Source: a virus (Duplodnaviria > Heunggongvirae > Uroviricota > Caudoviricetes). From it: a stretch of 20,754 nt of DNA. The notes below the pieces were generated by a model. It ran no database searches. It worked only from the letters and a program-made list of their open reading frames with translations, and was not told the origin of the DNA. Below are positions 13,849 to 20,431 of this stretch, piece after piece. Each line of letters opens with the position of its first letter. Positions within the stretch are counted from its first letter, which is position 1. The DNA is taken from positions 1-20,754 of the IMG/VR virus record IMGVR_UViG_2778261639_000004. One strand, 5' to 3'. Both the position numbers and the translations under genes were made by a program.

Positions 13849-14288
13849 TTGGCTGGGGTGTATGCGCTCTTGCGTTAGCCTTAGCCGATCGCTATTTGCT
13901 AAAACGCAAGGACATCACGCATTTAGAACTTGGTGATGTGGAAATTAAACCGGGTTTCATCCGGGTGCCGTTCAAATACCGGTCTAAATTCCCGTTTTTG
14001 CGCGGCGCAACGGTCAGATATTGGATCCGCGATGTTCAGAAGCCGACGACAGTGATTGAAGGCGAACAACGTTGTCTGACGTCGGCTGAACAGGGCGAAA
14101 ACAGTGAATGGTTGTACATACCCACTGAATATATGGGTAAAGGAGAGCGACTGTGGAATTTCAACGTCATGGTTACGCATGGCGACTCGTTCATTAACCC
14201 GTTGTATCGGATTTTCCCTGTTACTCAGCAAATCCGCAGAAGTTACGTAATAAATCTCGCACAGGATGTGTCAGATGACGAAAAATAA
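13845..14288 (+). CDS. lydB: Antiholin or lysis regulator (147 aa; P1 LydB-like)
   Basis: ATGA overlap with the holin stop; single N-terminal hydrophobic segment; symbol by synteny and length. Confidence 0.55.
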   Translation: MIGWGVCALALALADRYLLKRKDITHLELGDVEIKPGFIRVPFKYRSKFPFLRGATVRYWIRDVQKPTTVIEGEQRCLTSAEQGENSEWLYIPTEYMGKGERLWNFNVMVTHGDSFINPLYRIFPVTQQIRRSYVINLAQDVSDDEK

Positions 14289-14877
14289 GTATGCAACGGT
14301 CGATTTTGACCAGGTTAATGAAAAGGGGCTGAAATCCCTTATCGCGGCGATCAATAAAACTGGTGTTGCGGTAATTGAGGTTGACTCCAGCAACCGCGCA
14401 ACAACGAAAGATGGCGTTAAAGTTAAAACCGCAAAGCTGGTTCTTAACGACGGACAAATTCTTGCCATACAGGTAAACGATACTGGCGATATATCGTCTG
14501 TGAAACTGAATGGAAAAGCTATTCCTAACGCTCAGTCGCCGGATATCAAGACGCTTGGTACCGTCATGGGACAGGCGGCCCGCAAAAACTCCGCAAAATT
14601 CCAGAAATCACTGATCGCCAAAGCGAAGCGTGTTGCCAATCCGGTAGACAAGAAACCGGCAGTTAAATCCAACTTTCAGCGCCTGCAAGAAGCAAAACAG
14701 CGGAATGCTCAGGTGGTTGCCGCTTATAAATCAGCGCAGAACTCGGTGTCTTTCAATCAACAGCAGATCACTGATTTGCGGGCGAAGCTGGATAAGGAGA
14801 CAGGCCGACTCAATAACGAAAAGGCCCGAAATGGCGAACTCAAACGCCGTCTTAAGCAACTGAAAGCAGGAAATTAA
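14275..14877 (+). CDS. hdf: Short paralogue of the downstream DarA-like protein (200 aa; P1 Hdf-like)
   Basis: ATG at 14275 with AGGA 8 nt upstream (the ATG at 14266 has no spacing to it). Residues ~50-120 align with residues ~140-215 of the next protein (…NDGQILAIQV… / …SDGQTISILF…; …RKNSAKFQK… / …EKNSAKFQR…). Confidence 0.6.
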   Translation: MTKNKYATVDFDQVNEKGLKSLIAAINKTGVAVIEVDSSNRATTKDGVKVKTAKLVLNDGQILAIQVNDTGDISSVKLNGKAIPNAQSPDIKTLGTVMGQAARKNSAKFQKSLIAKAKRVANPVDKKPAVKSNFQRLQEAKQRNAQVVAAYKSAQNSVSFNQQQITDLRAKLDKETGRLNNEKARNGELKRRLKQLKAGN

Positions 14878-14878
14878 C

Positions 14879-16798
14879 ATGGAACAGTTCAATATCAATA
14901 AAGGGGTGACGATCAAGCCTGGGCTTGACGTGCTTCCCCCGCCAGTGACTGATGATGAATATCGCGCATTAATGGCCGGTGAGGACCGCTATCTGATGAC
15001 GGAATCCAACACCCTGGAGGAAATCGAGGCTACGTTCTTCTATGACACGCCGATCCACTGGTGCGCTACGGATTTACTGGAGGCGATTAGTTCTACTCGT
15101 TTGCAGTTACACCGGACCATGCAGGCATTTGTCCGGGCATTGAACCATAAGCTGAATGGTACCGGAATCTCTGCGGGGAGTGATAAAACGGGGGATGTTG
15201 CCCAGAGCGGCGCGCGCGAGATCGGCGGCGCTGAAATTGGTCGGGCACGTAACGTTAACGGGCTGCCGGTCCTGCCAGCCATTATTCCGCTCAGTGATGG
15301 TCAGACTATCAGCATTTTGTTTCATAGCCCGACAGCGGAAAACCGGATCACCAATAGCGATACGCTGGTTGCTTTCCAGTTCTTACTGAATAAAAAAGAC
15401 GTTACTCACACCGTTGCTCCGATGAGTGGACGTGATATGACGCTGGCGCAGGTCACCATGAAACTTGCCAACCTTGCAGAGAAAAACTCGGCAAAATTCC
15501 AGCGTGCGCAGAAGAAGAAAAAAGCCCTGGTTGATGAAATAACCCAACTACAGGCTGACAGTGACCAGAAAGAGGATGCCATGAGCGACCTCGCGGATCA
15601 GGTGGCAGCGGTAGAAGGCCAGAAGGCAGATCTGGAGCAGAAAATTAACGCGGTTGCTTCGGAAGCGGATTCTCTTTATCAAGAAAATGAGCGTTTGCAG
15701 GCGGAGATTGATCAGCTCAATCGCACTGGTGGGCGCGATACCATTGCTCCAGCGGGGATGACTGGTGGGCACTCTCGCGCGCTGACGGATCGCCTTGCCA
15801 GTATCAAAAATCGTATGCATATGGACGGGGAAGCGACGCTCAGTAATGGTGCATCAATGAAGCAATTCATTGGGGATGGCGAAGGGTATATCCAGTTAAC
15901 CGATCCGGATGGCAGCGTATACATGATCAAGGCTAAATCCATACAGGGTGTGGACATGGCAGATGCGATCGGCAAGCTGTTTAAAGCCTATAAAGCGGGT
16001 GATGTATCGGAATATCTGGTCCAACCAGAAGAACATAAACCGGAAAACGTCGAACCTGAACCAGCGGAGGATACCGGTAGCTCTTCGCCTGAACCAGAAG
16101 TCTCTGTAGGTGCATATCGATATGCCCTGCAAATGCGTCCGGCGGCCCCTGGCGCAATACCTGAAGGTAACAAAGCGATTCTGCCGCGCCCTGATGAAGG
16201 TGATCCGTATTATGAATATGCACGCTACGGCATTGCTACTTACGATACCCCGCTTTCTGATCAGCAAATGAGTGAGTACGACCTGAAGTTATTGCCTCGC
16301 GAGGATTCTTTCGACTTCCTGGCGAAGACACTTACTAATGGTCCGTTTGGCAAATATGCACAAAAAGCTCTGGAGCTGGCCACCAGCTCACCAGACGAGT
16401 TCCGCGTAATGCTGAAGACTCAGTTTCAAAAAACTTTCCCCAATATTGCGTTTCCGGGGGGCGCTGGCACCGAGAAAATGGTGCAGAGCATGATCAATGC
16501 ATTGCAGGCCGAAGTCGGTGAGATTACTCAGCCAGAACCGGCCCCGGCACAGCCTGATGAAACGGTTAGCGAAGCAGATGCAGAGGCTAATAAAGCCATT
16601 GAATATCTCAATAACGTGATGGATATGCAAAGCACTGACATGGCGGAGATCCGTAACGCCCGGGGCAATGTCCGGGAAGCGATTGCAGCCCTTCAGGCTG
16701 CCGGACGTTTTGAGGAAAACGAAGAGCTGGTTAATGGCGCTGCTCGCCACCTGGCTGATCTGCTGGTAGCAATCCAGAAAGCGGGGGTAGCGGCATGA
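14879..16798 (+). CDS. darA: Antirestriction, capsid-internal protein (639 aa; P1 DarA-like)
   Basis: Long ORF starting 1 nt after the upstream stop; internal coiled-coil segment (QLQADSDQKEDAMSDLADQVAAVEGQKADLEQKINAV…); Pro/Glu-rich linker. Symbol by synteny, length and the Hdf paralogy; not checked against a database. Confidence 0.65.
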   Translation: MEQFNINKGVTIKPGLDVLPPPVTDDEYRALMAGEDRYLMTESNTLEEIEATFFYDTPIHWCATDLLEAISSTRLQLHRTMQAFVRALNHKLNGTGISAGSDKTGDVAQSGAREIGGAEIGRARNVNGLPVLPAIIPLSDGQTISILFHSPTAENRITNSDTLVAFQFLLNKKDVTHTVAPMSGRDMTLAQVTMKLANLAEKNSAKFQRAQKKKKALVDEITQLQADSDQKEDAMSDLADQVAAVEGQKADLEQKINAVASEADSLYQENERLQAEIDQLNRTGGRDTIAPAGMTGGHSRALTDRLASIKNRMHMDGEATLSNGASMKQFIGDGEGYIQLTDPDGSVYMIKAKSIQGVDMADAIGKLFKAYKAGDVSEYLVQPEEHKPENVEPEPAEDTGSSSPEPEVSVGAYRYALQMRPAAPGAIPEGNKAILPRPDEGDPYYEYARYGIATYDTPLSDQQMSEYDLKLLPREDSFDFLAKTLTNGPFGKYAQKALELATSSPDEFRVMLKTQFQKTFPNIAFPGGAGTEKMVQSMINALQAEVGEITQPEPAPAQPDETVSEADAEANKAIEYLNNVMDMQSTDMAEIRNARGNVREAIAALQAAGRFEENEELVNGAARHLADLLVAIQKAGVAA

Positions 16799-17160
16799 CA
16801 CTATCAGCTATTGAGTTAATGGATCTCAGCGATAAGTTGGATGCTCTGATGTCCAAAGCGGCTACCGCGAGTGGCATGGAGTTGCTGGATATCAGCGATG
16901 AAATTGACCAGATCATGCAACAGATGGGGTACGGCGCGTCCGGCGGCAGTAGTGGCGAGGAAAAACAACCTTCGGTACATGATGGTGTGCCAAAACTGGT
17001 TGCTGATTTCCTGGCTGATAAATTCGTCGATCAGAGCACTGATGCATTTATCGGTACGTTACAGGACTTGAGTCAATATGTTGGCACATACATCGACCTG
17101 GACCAGGTTAAACAGCACACGGCGGCATGGATAGCCGCCAACATTAAAGAGGCAGAATAA
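16795..17160 (+). CDS. ddrA: Small acidic protein (121 aa; P1 DdrA-like by position)
   Basis: ATGA overlap with the upstream stop; acidic with a Gly/Ser linker (GYGASGGSSGEE). Confidence 0.5.
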   Translation: MTLSAIELMDLSDKLDALMSKAATASGMELLDISDEIDQIMQQMGYGASGGSSGEEKQPSVHDGVPKLVADFLADKFVDQSTDAFIGTLQDLSQYVGTYIDLDQVKQHTAAWIAANIKEAE

Positions 17161-17172
17161 GGCGTAACAGGG

Positions 17173-20136
17173 ATGAGCTTAAGCGATCAGGTGGTAATGG
17201 CCACCAGTATAGAAACGCTGATCGAGCTGCTAAAAAACCTGCCCGATTACGGGCGGGTTTCGTATGTGGTGACAGCGAAGGGAGACGAGGTAAAAACAGC
17301 GTTTGATATCGTCGATGCCTCAGCTCTTTTGGTATCCAATACTCTGGACGGGAAAATTAACCCTGACTATCCCCAGGAACTTCAGCCGCGCGACCGGACC
17401 CGCGCATCCAGTCTTCTTCAGGTCAACCAGATATCCAAGGATTTGCGTCCTGCCCAGCTGACCGATTCCGGTTTATCCAGCCATGGCGCGCCGATAATTG
17501 GTGAGGACAATGCCGTTGAGTCAGGTAATGGACGGACCATGGGGATCATCAAAGCCTATCAGGACGGCAATGCGGATCGGTATCGTGAGTACCTGATTGA
17601 TCATGCGACCGAATTCGGCATACGACCTGAAAAGGTTGAATCAATGGCGGCTCCGGTACTGGTGCGCCGCCGGTTAACTAAGATTGACCGCGTTCAGTTT
17701 GCCAAGGACTCAAATATTTCTGATCTTCAGGAAATGGCAGCCAGTGAAAAGGCTTTTGTTGATGCTGACAGCATAACTCCGGCGATGATGGCGCTGTTTA
17801 ACCCATCAGAAAGCGGAGATCTGCTTAGCCGCAGTAATGACGCGTTTATTCGCGGATTCATGACGCAAGTTGGTGCCACACAGGCTGCTGGCCTTGTAAC
17901 GGAAGATGGGCGACCAACACGGCAACTTGTTGACCGTATACAAAACGCGATCTTTGCCAAGGCATATAAGGATGCGCGCCTGGTAAGAATGGTTGCAGAA
18001 GAACCTGATCCGGATATGCGTAATGTTCTGACGGCGCTTAATGCGGCAGCCAATGATTTTGTCCAGATGCAGGCTTTATCAGGAGAAGCGCACAAGCAGG
18101 CTGTGACAACTATTGTTGATGGTATTGAGACAGCGGATAGTCTCGATAAAAAGGCGCTGGCGGCATTGAAAGATGCGGTAGACCTGGTAAGGCAATCGAA
18201 GGAGTCAGGCCAACATATTACCGATGTTATTGCTCAGGGGGATATGTTCAGCGAAACAGCCCCGGAAGTGAAAGCTCTCGCGTTGTTCATCGTCGCGAAT
18301 AACCGTAGCGCGAAGCGTATGGCCACCGCCTTTAAGTTGATGGCGCAACGTATCAATGATGAGTTACAGCACCAGGGCCAGGCGCTTGGGGATATGTTTG
18401 GCGGCGGTGATGTGTCGTTACAGGATATCCTTCGCCAGGTATCTCAGGAACTGGAAAACGAAGGTATGCAAGGGATATCCGGCGGTAGTTACAACGGTGT
18501 TGCTCCATATACCAGCTTGCTATTACATCGGGCATCCGGCATCAAAGACATTATTCATCTGATCAGGCTGCTATCCCGCACCGATCCCCAGGATGAGCAG
18601 CTTGTACAAGTGCTTGCGCATTTTGTCCGAATGCCTGTTGCCGACGTAAAAAAATGGTGCCGATTATTCGGTATCAGCAATTCGTTACTTCGCGGATTGT
18701 TAAATCACGCATCCTCCCTTGGGCGCGACGGCTTTGATGAGATAGCGCAGGCGATAAAAAACGGAGATATGCCACCAGCTATTGACTGGTTTTCCATTCG
18801 CCCAACCAGGGTGAAAGCATTCCTTAGCGCGGCGCATTCGGCATCACCATTGGCAGAAATGGTTCAGAGGTTGTCGCTCATATTCACAGACCATACCGCG
18901 TTGGGTGATCTGACTCTGGACGAGATGAAAGAAGCCTCCATTCAGTGGGCCGATCAACAAAATGAGGTTAACTCTGACTTCTTGCCAGCATTCAGGAAGG
19001 CCGTTAGTAAAGCGGATGATGCCCGTGGAATTCTGAAGGCATTTAAGGCATTGCAAAGTCGTGTTAATAAACATGTCGGTGATATCGATGGGGTAACGGC
19101 GGAAGGCCGGGATATCCTTAAAGAGCACGGCATAACGCCAGAGTTTATTGATGAGATCAGGACTGATATGCAGCGTGAGGTCGTATCGTCCCTGCAAATC
19201 GTAGCCAGAGCGTTGGCGGATGCTAATCCGAAGAGTGCGGCCATTGTTAACCGGGTTATTGGTGATATTGAAGCATCGGAGGGCATGGGGGCACTGAAAC
19301 TCTTCCTTTCGCGAGCGTTTAATCCTAACGGCAATATTCTCCCTGGCATTATTGGTGAGGCTAAAAGGTATGTCAGTGAAGAAGAACTTGAGCAGCTTGA
19401 CCAACTACTTAAGCGATTCTCATATAACCCGCAGACACGCTGGCAAATGAATCAGCGAAGTATGGGTTCGGTCCACGAGAAAGTGTTATCTGCCATGAAC
19501 AGTGCGATCGCAAACTCATCCGTATCTGAAGAAAAAGCTCTTGAGTGGGCCGACTCTTTTATCACGGAAGAAGTGGAAGAAGCCCGCGCTGGACAGAATG
19601 GTGGGATAGACCTGCGCAAGGAACTTGCTGATATTTATCGCCTGACCGGCGGTAAAATTTCGACCTTATCAAAGGTGGTTCACCACCAGGGAAGGGCATA
19701 TGCAAATCTTAATGGTGTTGTTGCTGTCAATTTGAACGATGAAAATGCAAGTGCACTGTGGCACGAGCTGGGTCATCATCTTGAGTACAGTAACCCTGGT
19801 TTGTTAGAGAAAGCCCGGTCATTCCTGAAGGCCAATGTTGAAGGGGATAAGCCATCTTTCGTTAATATCGGTGGGCGTGGCAAGCCTGAATGGTGCTTCA
19901 GATCTCGATTGAGTAATATTTATATGGCGAAGGTATACCCGCCAGCCTCAGTGAGTAACTCCGGGAAAATTCGGCAGAAAGCACCGACTATTTCAAAAAC
20001 ATCAGCAACGGAAGTATTCTCTATGGCTCTTCAGTTGTATCATGACAAAGAGGCCGCTGCCGCATCACTGATGAATGGTGACGGATTGCTGGAACTGTTA
20101 TTAGGTGTGGCAAAGGAGCTAAATAATGCAGATTAA
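17173..20136 (+). CDS. ddrB: Large protein (987 aa) with a C-terminal HExxH motif (P1 DdrB-like by position)
   Basis: Long ORF on the operon strand. HELGH at residues 864-868 (nt 19762-19776) is the zinc-metallopeptidase consensus; no other domain recognised by eye. Symbol by synteny only. Confidence 0.55.
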   Translation: MSLSDQVVMATSIETLIELLKNLPDYGRVSYVVTAKGDEVKTAFDIVDASALLVSNTLDGKINPDYPQELQPRDRTRASSLLQVNQISKDLRPAQLTDSGLSSHGAPIIGEDNAVESGNGRTMGIIKAYQDGNADRYREYLIDHATEFGIRPEKVESMAAPVLVRRRLTKIDRVQFAKDSNISDLQEMAASEKAFVDADSITPAMMALFNPSESGDLLSRSNDAFIRGFMTQVGATQAAGLVTEDGRPTRQLVDRIQNAIFAKAYKDARLVRMVAEEPDPDMRNVLTALNAAANDFVQMQALSGEAHKQAVTTIVDGIETADSLDKKALAALKDAVDLVRQSKESGQHITDVIAQGDMFSETAPEVKALALFIVANNRSAKRMATAFKLMAQRINDELQHQGQALGDMFGGGDVSLQDILRQVSQELENEGMQGISGGSYNGVAPYTSLLLHRASGIKDIIHLIRLLSRTDPQDEQLVQVLAHFVRMPVADVKKWCRLFGISNSLLRGLLNHASSLGRDGFDEIAQAIKNGDMPPAIDWFSIRPTRVKAFLSAAHSASPLAEMVQRLSLIFTDHTALGDLTLDEMKEASIQWADQQNEVNSDFLPAFRKAVSKADDARGILKAFKALQSRVNKHVGDIDGVTAEGRDILKEHGITPEFIDEIRTDMQREVVSSLQIVARALADANPKSAAIVNRVIGDIEASEGMGALKLFLSRAFNPNGNILPGIIGEAKRYVSEEELEQLDQLLKRFSYNPQTRWQMNQRSMGSVHEKVLSAMNSAIANSSVSEEKALEWADSFITEEVEEARAGQNGGIDLRKELADIYRLTGGKISTLSKVVHHQGRAYANLNGVVAVNLNDENASALWHELGHHLEYSNPGLLEKARSFLKANVEGDKPSFVNIGGRGKPEWCFRSRLSNIYMAKVYPPASVSNSGKIRQKAPTISKTSATEVFSMALQLYHDKEAAAASLMNGDGLLELLLGVAKELNNAD

Positions 20137-20431
20137 AATCGCAGCGCCATTAGGCGGAGATGCCATTATCGAATTTGATGATAATGAAGAAGTTTCCGGG
20201 CGTTTAAGCATTATCTCCGGTGACATTACCGAGGACATGATCGCTGAAGCCATAGCTGGGGCAAATCCCAATAGCTATATGGGATTCGTTAACACCCTTG
20301 ATGCTCCCGCAAGTGATGTTCTCCGAACGCTGCATCTTTACGCTGGCTGGTTTGTCGATTGGCCAGCAGTAGAGGGTGGCGATGAGGACGACGATGATTT
20401 TGGGGATCATGTAGACCAGATCGTATATTAA
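20126..20431 (+). CDS. Very acidic small protein (101 aa, about 22 Asp/Glu, C-terminal GGDEDDDDFGD)
   Basis: ATG with AAGGAG 8 nt upstream; overlaps the 3' end of the upstream gene by 11 nt; last gene before an AT-rich non-coding stretch. Confidence 0.5.
   Translation: MQIKIAAPLGGDAIIEFDDNEEVSGRLSIISGDITEDMIAEAIAGANPNSYMGFVNTLDAPASDVLRTLHLYAGWFVDWPAVEGGDEDDDDFGDHVDQIVY

Follow-up and report, generated by a model that had tools for sequence, protein, structure and literature searches.

The polyvalent protein DdrB is found inside the head of phage P1, where it belongs to the Dar antirestriction system and is the least understood large component of that system. Here we analyzed its counterpart in a 20,754-nucleotide stretch of viral DNA (the window; positions 1 to 20,754 of IMG/VR record IMGVR_UViG_2778261639_000004), in which positions 17173-20136 encode a protein of 987 amino acids. 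The product is the DdrB of a P1-like phage-plasmid and an orthologue of P1 DdrB, with 973 of 995 aligned positions identical (98%) over the full length and a single gap of 8 residues. The 14 substitutions between the two proteins leave the predicted catalytic residues untouched. The C-terminal part of the protein carries an HExxH motif, and sequence comparison together with structure prediction gives good computational support that this motif belongs to a genuine zincin-type metallopeptidase domain and did not arise by chance.

The zinc-peptidase reading of this protein is already known from a 2004 annotation and from analyses published in 2013 and 2017. The RefSeq/GenBank note on P1 ddrB reads 'unknown protein function; possible metallopeptidase', the P7 gene is named prt with the product 'putative protease', and the JL22 annotation gives 'putative metallopeptidase'. 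Lenart et al. listed the ddrB family as a suspected zincin in 2013 (PMC3650047), and Iyer et al. identified a C-terminal zincin-like metallopeptidase domain in DdrB in 2017 (PMC5512222). The latter authors described a processing step ahead of packaging that yields a DdrB of 76 kDa, and they proposed that the peptidase domain autoproteolyses DdrB while the ParB-like N-terminal part stays in the head (PMC5512222). The preliminary description of the window suggested that this Dar component had not been assigned a peptidase activity, which is not supported in view of these annotations and two papers.

The closest functional analogue is ArdC of plasmid R388, with which a mobile element counteracts type I restriction, as Dar does. 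This antirestriction protein consists of a single-stranded DNA-binding domain and a metalloprotease domain. ArdC and DdrB have in common a DNA-related N-terminal domain and a C-terminal gluzincin, predicted in the case of DdrB, with HExxH and a Glu. The nearest folds are Spartan and IrrE for ArdC, whereas they are lethal factor, PPEP and MtfA for the DdrB domain. In ArdC, E228 orients H205 (PMC7213743), and exchange of a metal ligand (E229A) leaves the ability to overcome restriction fully intact, with no substrate found for the enzyme (PMC7213743).

What is added here is a predicted catalytic set at the level of residues (H864, E865, H868, E871, Y917/Y922, and E947), the domain limits of residues 765-987 with the nearest solved folds named above, and a concrete competitor to self-cleavage, namely cutting by the prohead protease Pro at [LI]xE sites. 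The interest of the analysis as a discovery is low, and its value is a residue-level specification for experiments. Confirmation of the peptidase would reveal either how a multi-domain head protein is split into its working parts or what its host target is, and the same peptidase domain is present in hundreds of phage head proteins.

Conserved residues around the HExxH motif

The nucleotides at positions 19762-19788, cacgagctgggtcatcatcttgagtac, encode HELGHHLEY at residues 864-872 (H864-E-L-G-H868-H-L-E871-Y872). The translation therefore confirms that the motif lies in the C-terminal part of the 987-residue protein, as had been noticed in the preliminary description. HExxH occurs once in DdrB, and its chance expectation calculated from the protein's own composition (20 His and 62 Glu) is 0.025.

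The family was gathered by an exhaustive HMMER search with residues 740-987 as the query, a word-indexed search having recovered few distant relatives. The search yielded 388 cluster representatives at E<=1e-3, and 34 at E<=1e-10. HExxH was present in the matched region of 155 of the 157 retrieved proteins, and the remaining two are fragments that lack this region. Conservation was counted in an alignment of 145 sequences, most of which are 25-45% identical to DdrB, and a curated alignment of 52 sequences examined alongside gave the same picture. H864, E865, H868, Y917, and E947 are invariant (145/145), and position 946 is Thr or Ser in all 145 sequences. E871 (144/145), Y922 (143/145), and E906 (142/145) are nearly so, while R841 is Arg in 144 sequences, Lys in one, and invariant in the curated set. 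The family signature can be written as R-A-x-A ... HExxHxxE ... E-x10-Y-x4-Y ... (T/S)-E-x-x-S. The spacing between E906 and Y917 is 11 in 143 of the 145 sequences. The distance from Y922 to E947 is 25 in DdrB, a value found in only three of the 145, and the commonest value is 6. Because of this conservation, a chance motif was rejected. The conserved elements are as follows.

19693..19695, plus strand: R841, in the R-A-x-A stretch before the active-site helix, between the predicted strands of residues 834-837 and 849-852; from the alignments, with a putative role
19762..19785, plus strand: HExxHxxE on the active-site helix; from the sequence, its invariance, and the modelled helix of residues 860-873
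19888..19938, plus strand: conserved block E906-x10-Y917-x4-Y922; from the alignment counts
19939..20001, plus strand: insertion of about 19-21 residues (residues 923-943) between Y922 and the Glu helix, in 3 of 145 sequences, P1-type DdrB included; low predicted local distance difference test (pLDDT) values
20008..20022, plus strand: T946-E947-V-F-S950, 'glutamate helix' motif ExxS; from the alignment, with E947 at the N-terminal end of the helix of residues 948-954

Following the zincin paradigm, from which the whole mechanism is taken, H864, H868, and E947 would bind zinc, and E865 would be the general base that activates the water molecule. E871 would probably brace a His ligand, by analogy with ArdC E228, and either Y922 or Y917 would be the oxyanion-stabilizing tyrosine. 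We infer that the third zinc ligand is E947 and not E871 or E906. The stretch E947-V-F-S950 fits the 'glutamate helix' motif of gluzincins, (E,H)xx(A,F,T,S,G), as quoted for ArdC (PMC7213743). In PPEP-3, with H153, E154, and H157, the oxyanion Tyr190 and the third ligand Glu197 are 7 residues apart (PMC12828418). The conserved Tyr of the DdrB family is most often located 6 residues before the invariant Glu, and P1-type DdrB has an extra loop there. The second His and the putative Glu ligand are mostly 63 residues apart in the family, compared with 79 in DdrB and 40 in PPEP-3.

Predicted fold and modular architecture

The protein can be divided into the following parts.

19465..20133, plus strand: C-terminal zincin (gluzincin-type) metallopeptidase-like domain, residues 765-987
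17278..17673, plus strand: N-terminal DdrB-type domain of the ParB/sulfiredoxin superfamily, residues 36-167 (Pfam PF18763 ddrB-ParB, E 8.3e-40; pLDDT about 80-90)
18580..19464, plus strand: variable helical middle region and linker, residues ~470-764 (local phmmer against retrieved homologues; predicted all-helical, mixed confidence)
19282..19455, plus strand: predicted flexible inter-domain segments, residues 704-707, 714-720, and 751-761 (each with pLDDT <50), flanking I-G-E729|A

The AlphaFold2 model of residues 765-987, computed with the 52-sequence alignment, had a pLDDT of 92.9 and a predicted template modelling score (pTM) of 0.90. In this model HExxHxxE lies on a helix of residues 860-873 (model residues 96-109), and E947 starts a later helix of residues 948-954. 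This high-confidence model has a zincin fold (a mixed beta-sheet with an edge strand above the active-site helix). The pLDDT dips in the insertion loop, at model residues 160-170 of the domain model and at residues 927-934 of the full-length model. The full-length model was of moderate quality (pLDDT 67.7 and pTM 0.41) and was used for domain limits and linkers only.

Structure comparison of residues 765-987 gave scores of 8.0 for PPEP-3 (142 residues aligned), 7.5 for PPEP-2, 7.1 for the lethal-factor-like domain of Certhrax, 6.9, 6.4, and 6.2 for Anthrax lethal factor, 6.7 for MtfA, and 6.3 for the lethal-factor-like domain of Edema factor, followed by M1 and M32 peptidases and Wss1 at 5.0-5.5. 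Lethal factor, PPEP-1, PPEP-2, PPEP-3, and MtfA share 12-16% identity with the DdrB domain, and these proteins are secreted toxins or cytoplasmic regulators, whereas the DdrB-type domain is found in phage head proteins.

When the DdrB orthologues (950-1014 residues) were compared by local phmmer, residues 1-470 and 760-987 were kept, while the middle of about 290 residues was unrelated. Given the shared ends and the unrelated middle, DdrB is, at the sequence level, a mosaic of exchangeable modules. Orthologues with a replaced middle are P0019, P0021, P0024, P0030, and P0031. The peptidase domain also occurs with other partners, namely InPase with two ParB domains, and Phage_Mu_F (MuF) with three peptidase copies (P0092). 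Two or three copies per polypeptide are present in P0026, P0052, and P0092, and the domain is further found in proteins of about 600 residues and as a small stand-alone protein. The stand-alone homologue of 447 residues (L005 4569-5912, and L006 4239-5582) is encoded directly after a Phage_Mu_F gene, within a module that runs from terminase through Mu-type portal, MuF, and the homologue to the capsid genes, and it looks like a split version of a MuF-effector fusion. Some homologues match the PHROG family 'minor head protein'.

As judged from the sequences, this architecture and gene context follow the pattern that Iyer et al. described for polyvalent proteins packaged in the head and then ejected. 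These authors give DdrB as one of their own examples of the polyvalent metallopeptidase, MPTase (PMC5512222). Common to both are the core of beta-sheet, HExxH helix, and Glu helix, the fusions to ParB-like, MuF, InPase, and further domains of phage head proteins, and the multiple copies. The phage-type clade of Iyer et al. has an acidic residue three positions after HExxH, for which the DdrB equivalent is E871 (PMC5512222). On the contrary, the residue before the active-site helix is Arg841 in the DdrB family but His in that clade (PMC5512222).

Possible roles of the peptidase domain

We give an even chance to the combined reading that residues 765-987 are a genuine zincin (gluzincin) metallopeptidase domain, as the conserved residues and the model suggest, and that this domain acts as a processing peptidase. 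The role in processing DdrB itself or its cargo is a published hypothesis that we adopt as the preferred one. The domain type would be that of large multi-domain polyvalent proteins, which are packaged in the phage head and ejected with the DNA. Within the flexible linker that precedes residue ~765, the peptidase would cut its own protein and possibly further Dar cargo. The ParB-like N-terminal module set free in this way would be the ~76-kDa form that has been reported from P1 heads. The peptidase would not be a free-floating weapon against host restriction enzymes. The low-confidence breaks at residues 704-720 and 751-761 of the full-length model directly precede the peptidase domain. The calculated masses are 75.9 kDa for residues 1-695, 76.9 kDa for residues 1-705, and 79.4 kDa for residues 1-729, and a cut in the flexible segments around residues 704-761 would give an N-terminal piece of roughly 77-83 kDa. 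DdrB is among the proteins identified in purified virions, where 39 peptides cover 59.5% of its sequence, and the proteomics supplement of Gonzales 2022 gave no DdrB peptides.

Several points weigh against this reading, in addition to those concerning Pro that are given below. The 59.5% coverage does not tell which end of DdrB is packaged, and the 76-kDa figure for the head form is second-hand, as cited by Iyer et al. The AlphaFold2 evidence consists of pLDDT and secondary structure, not of ligand distances, and Foldseek against the PDB gave no match for the domain model. Pfam searches with the full protein and two fragments at E<=10 matched ddrB-ParB alone and no peptidase family, and NCBIfam gave no match to DdrB. 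MPTase-PolyVal, the Pfam model that came out of the study of Iyer et al., was matched at E<=10 neither by DdrB, nor by its C-terminal fragment, nor by the 52 family members, and the ATLF hidden Markov model (HMM) matched one of the 52 members at an E of 0.029, which is below threshold. In the literature searched, we found no biochemical or genetic test of the motif, of zinc binding, or of activity.

Membership of Pfam ATLF or MPTase-PolyVal was set aside because of these HMM results. PHROGs searches with the C-terminus gave only 'unknown function' families, MtfA-family models were absent among the 25 families listed for the 52 members, and neither the protein nor the 52-sequence profile had a significant sequence match in the PDB. 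The sub-threshold PDB sequence matches were ADAM8 and a botulinum-like toxin, both aligned on HExxH, and those among the family members were Zincin_1, Reprolysin, and ATLF. Since these sub-threshold matches are also zincins, we counted them for the zincin reading. By its predicted fold and catalytic residues, the DdrB domain is a zincin outside every curated sequence family tested. The zinc site raised as a possibility in the preliminary description is favored by the zincin-fold model, by the position of the motif on a helix, and by the invariance of the putative ligands. The HMM search against peptidase families that it named as a check gave no match in Pfam or NCBIfam.

The missing matches to Pfam and NCBIfam peptidase families would also suit a chance HExxH or a catalytically dead scaffold, as would the low-confidence insertion of 19-21 residues that P1-type DdrB carries between the conserved Tyr and the third ligand. 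This explanation is nevertheless hardly credible and close to refuted, considering the low chance expectation of 0.025, the predicted zincin fold, the invariance of the motif and the third-ligand Glu in 145 homologues with conserved Tyr residues, and the fact that in dead zincins the Glu or one of the His is usually missing. It is possible, though doubtful, that the peptidase domain is active but that DdrB is matured by Pro at [LI]xE, in which case the DdrB peptidase would have another, possibly dispensable job. P1 Pro is a T4 gp21-like prohead protease (HHpred 99.4% to 5JBL), to which cleavage of the major capsid protein after E120 and of DarA near residue 69 has been attributed. DarA contains L-L-E68|A (L66-L67-E68, window positions 15074-15082) at the point where the cryo-electron microscopy density begins, the first ~69 residues being missing, and this is a (L/I)xE motif of the T4 gp21 type and a candidate recognition rule for P1 Pro. 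DdrB has [LI]xE sites at E651, E661 (I-D-E), and E729 (I-G-E), corresponding to fragments of 71.1, 72.2, and 79.4 kDa, the last two sites lying within or close to the linker, and with these matching sites Pro could therefore make the 76-kDa form without the DdrB peptidase. In addition, the full function of ArdC E229A means that a peptidase site need not be required for antirestriction (PMC7213743), and ddrB is non-essential for plaque formation. However, the whole catalytic set is strictly conserved over 145 diverse homologues, indicating that the activity matters for something. Also, [LI]xE triplets are common by chance, with 11 in DdrB, and DdrB is no more than a candidate substrate of Pro. 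The available data do not separate cleavage by Pro from self-cleavage.

The other alternatives place the activity in the infected cell. We consider it unlikely that the peptidase domain is packaged, enters the cell together with the DNA, and there attacks a host protein, for instance a subunit of a type I restriction enzyme or some other factor of defence. In favor of it, DdrB is a virion protein, and the system to which it belongs works against type I restriction. Iyer et al. name action on host proteins, as an effector, among the possibilities for domains of this kind (PMC5512222), and some of the nearest solved structures are those of secreted or injected effector proteases (lethal factor and the PPEPs). 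However, Dar acts in cis only, so that DNA from the same capsid is protected and a co-infecting dar- phage is not rescued (PMC12707154), and this behavior is hard to expect of a diffusible protease by which restriction enzymes are destroyed. Moreover, the virion would lack the peptidase domain if Iyer et al. are right in predicting that the 76-kDa head form is the N-terminal part. The role assigned to DdrB is to help DarB into the capsid, and for ArdC no target was found (PMC7213743). The preliminary description proposed both host defence proteins and co-packaged virion proteins as targets, and the former proposal is the weaker of the two in view of the cis-only action of Dar (PMC12707154) and of the functional ArdC E229A with no substrate found (PMC7213743). 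Since ArdC E229A is fully active, wild-type antirestriction of DdrB motif mutants would not disprove a peptidase. It is still less probable that DdrB is ejected whole, or in a form that has kept both ends, that its ParB-like module tethers it to the genome, and that the zincin cleaves colliding proteins such as translocating type I complexes. A DNA-tethered protease of this kind would resemble Spartan or Wss1 and, if true, would explain why Dar protection is cis-only.

The ddrB gene and its surroundings

The setting of ddrB in the window is as follows.

17173..20136, plus strand: ddrB coding sequence, with ATG at 17173 and TAA at 20134-20136, 987 residues plus stop (open reading frame (ORF) listing and translation)
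14266-14877: hdf, neighbour in the antirestriction operon
14879-16798: darA, neighbour in the antirestriction operon
16795-17160: ddrA, directly 5' of ddrB
20126-20431: hxr, directly 3' of ddrB

According to the ORF listing, the gene order in the window is lydA-lydB-hdf-darA-ddrA-ddrB-hxr, which matches the annotations of P1, P7, and JL22. The placement of ddrB in an antirestriction operon by the preliminary description was correct, since hdf-darA-ddrA-ddrB-hxr are ordered as in P1. P1 DdrB (NC_005856 P1_gp022, YP_006491.1), P7 'Prt', and JL22 DdrB are the same gene with the same operon order and the same motif as in the window. The ddrB DNA is 96.6-97.5% identical to that of 19 P1-like phages, several hundred P1-like plasmids of E. 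coli and Salmonella match the window as a whole, and phrog_2299 is a full-length match for DdrB.

DdrB of the window has 987 residues and P1 DdrB has 995. Compared with P1 ddrB, the window copy is without 24 nucleotides, in frame, which encode LFESVSGG after residue 438. The deletion point is at window positions 18478-18486 (residues 438/439), corresponding to 7306-7338 of the P1 locus L001. In P1 the LFESVSGG stretch is flanked on both sides by the 9-bp direct repeat TCCGGCGGT, of which the window has one copy. An in-frame deletion by slippage seems to have occurred here, within a Gly/Ser-rich segment that was modelled with low confidence.

The hxr start codon (ATG at 20126) overlaps the final 11 nucleotides of ddrB (window positions 20126-20136), and this arrangement suggests that translation of the Xre-like gene may be coupled to that of the dar operon. 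An antisense ORF of 122 residues lies within ddrB (17727-18095, minus strand), and its position corresponds to that of P1 iddB, annotated as 'unknown protein function'. Finally, the name prt is used for two genes. In P7, prt (AF503408 / NC_050152, locus L002 3001-5988) is the ddrB orthologue, while in P1 prt is the portal gene, and this clash could mislead annotation transfer.

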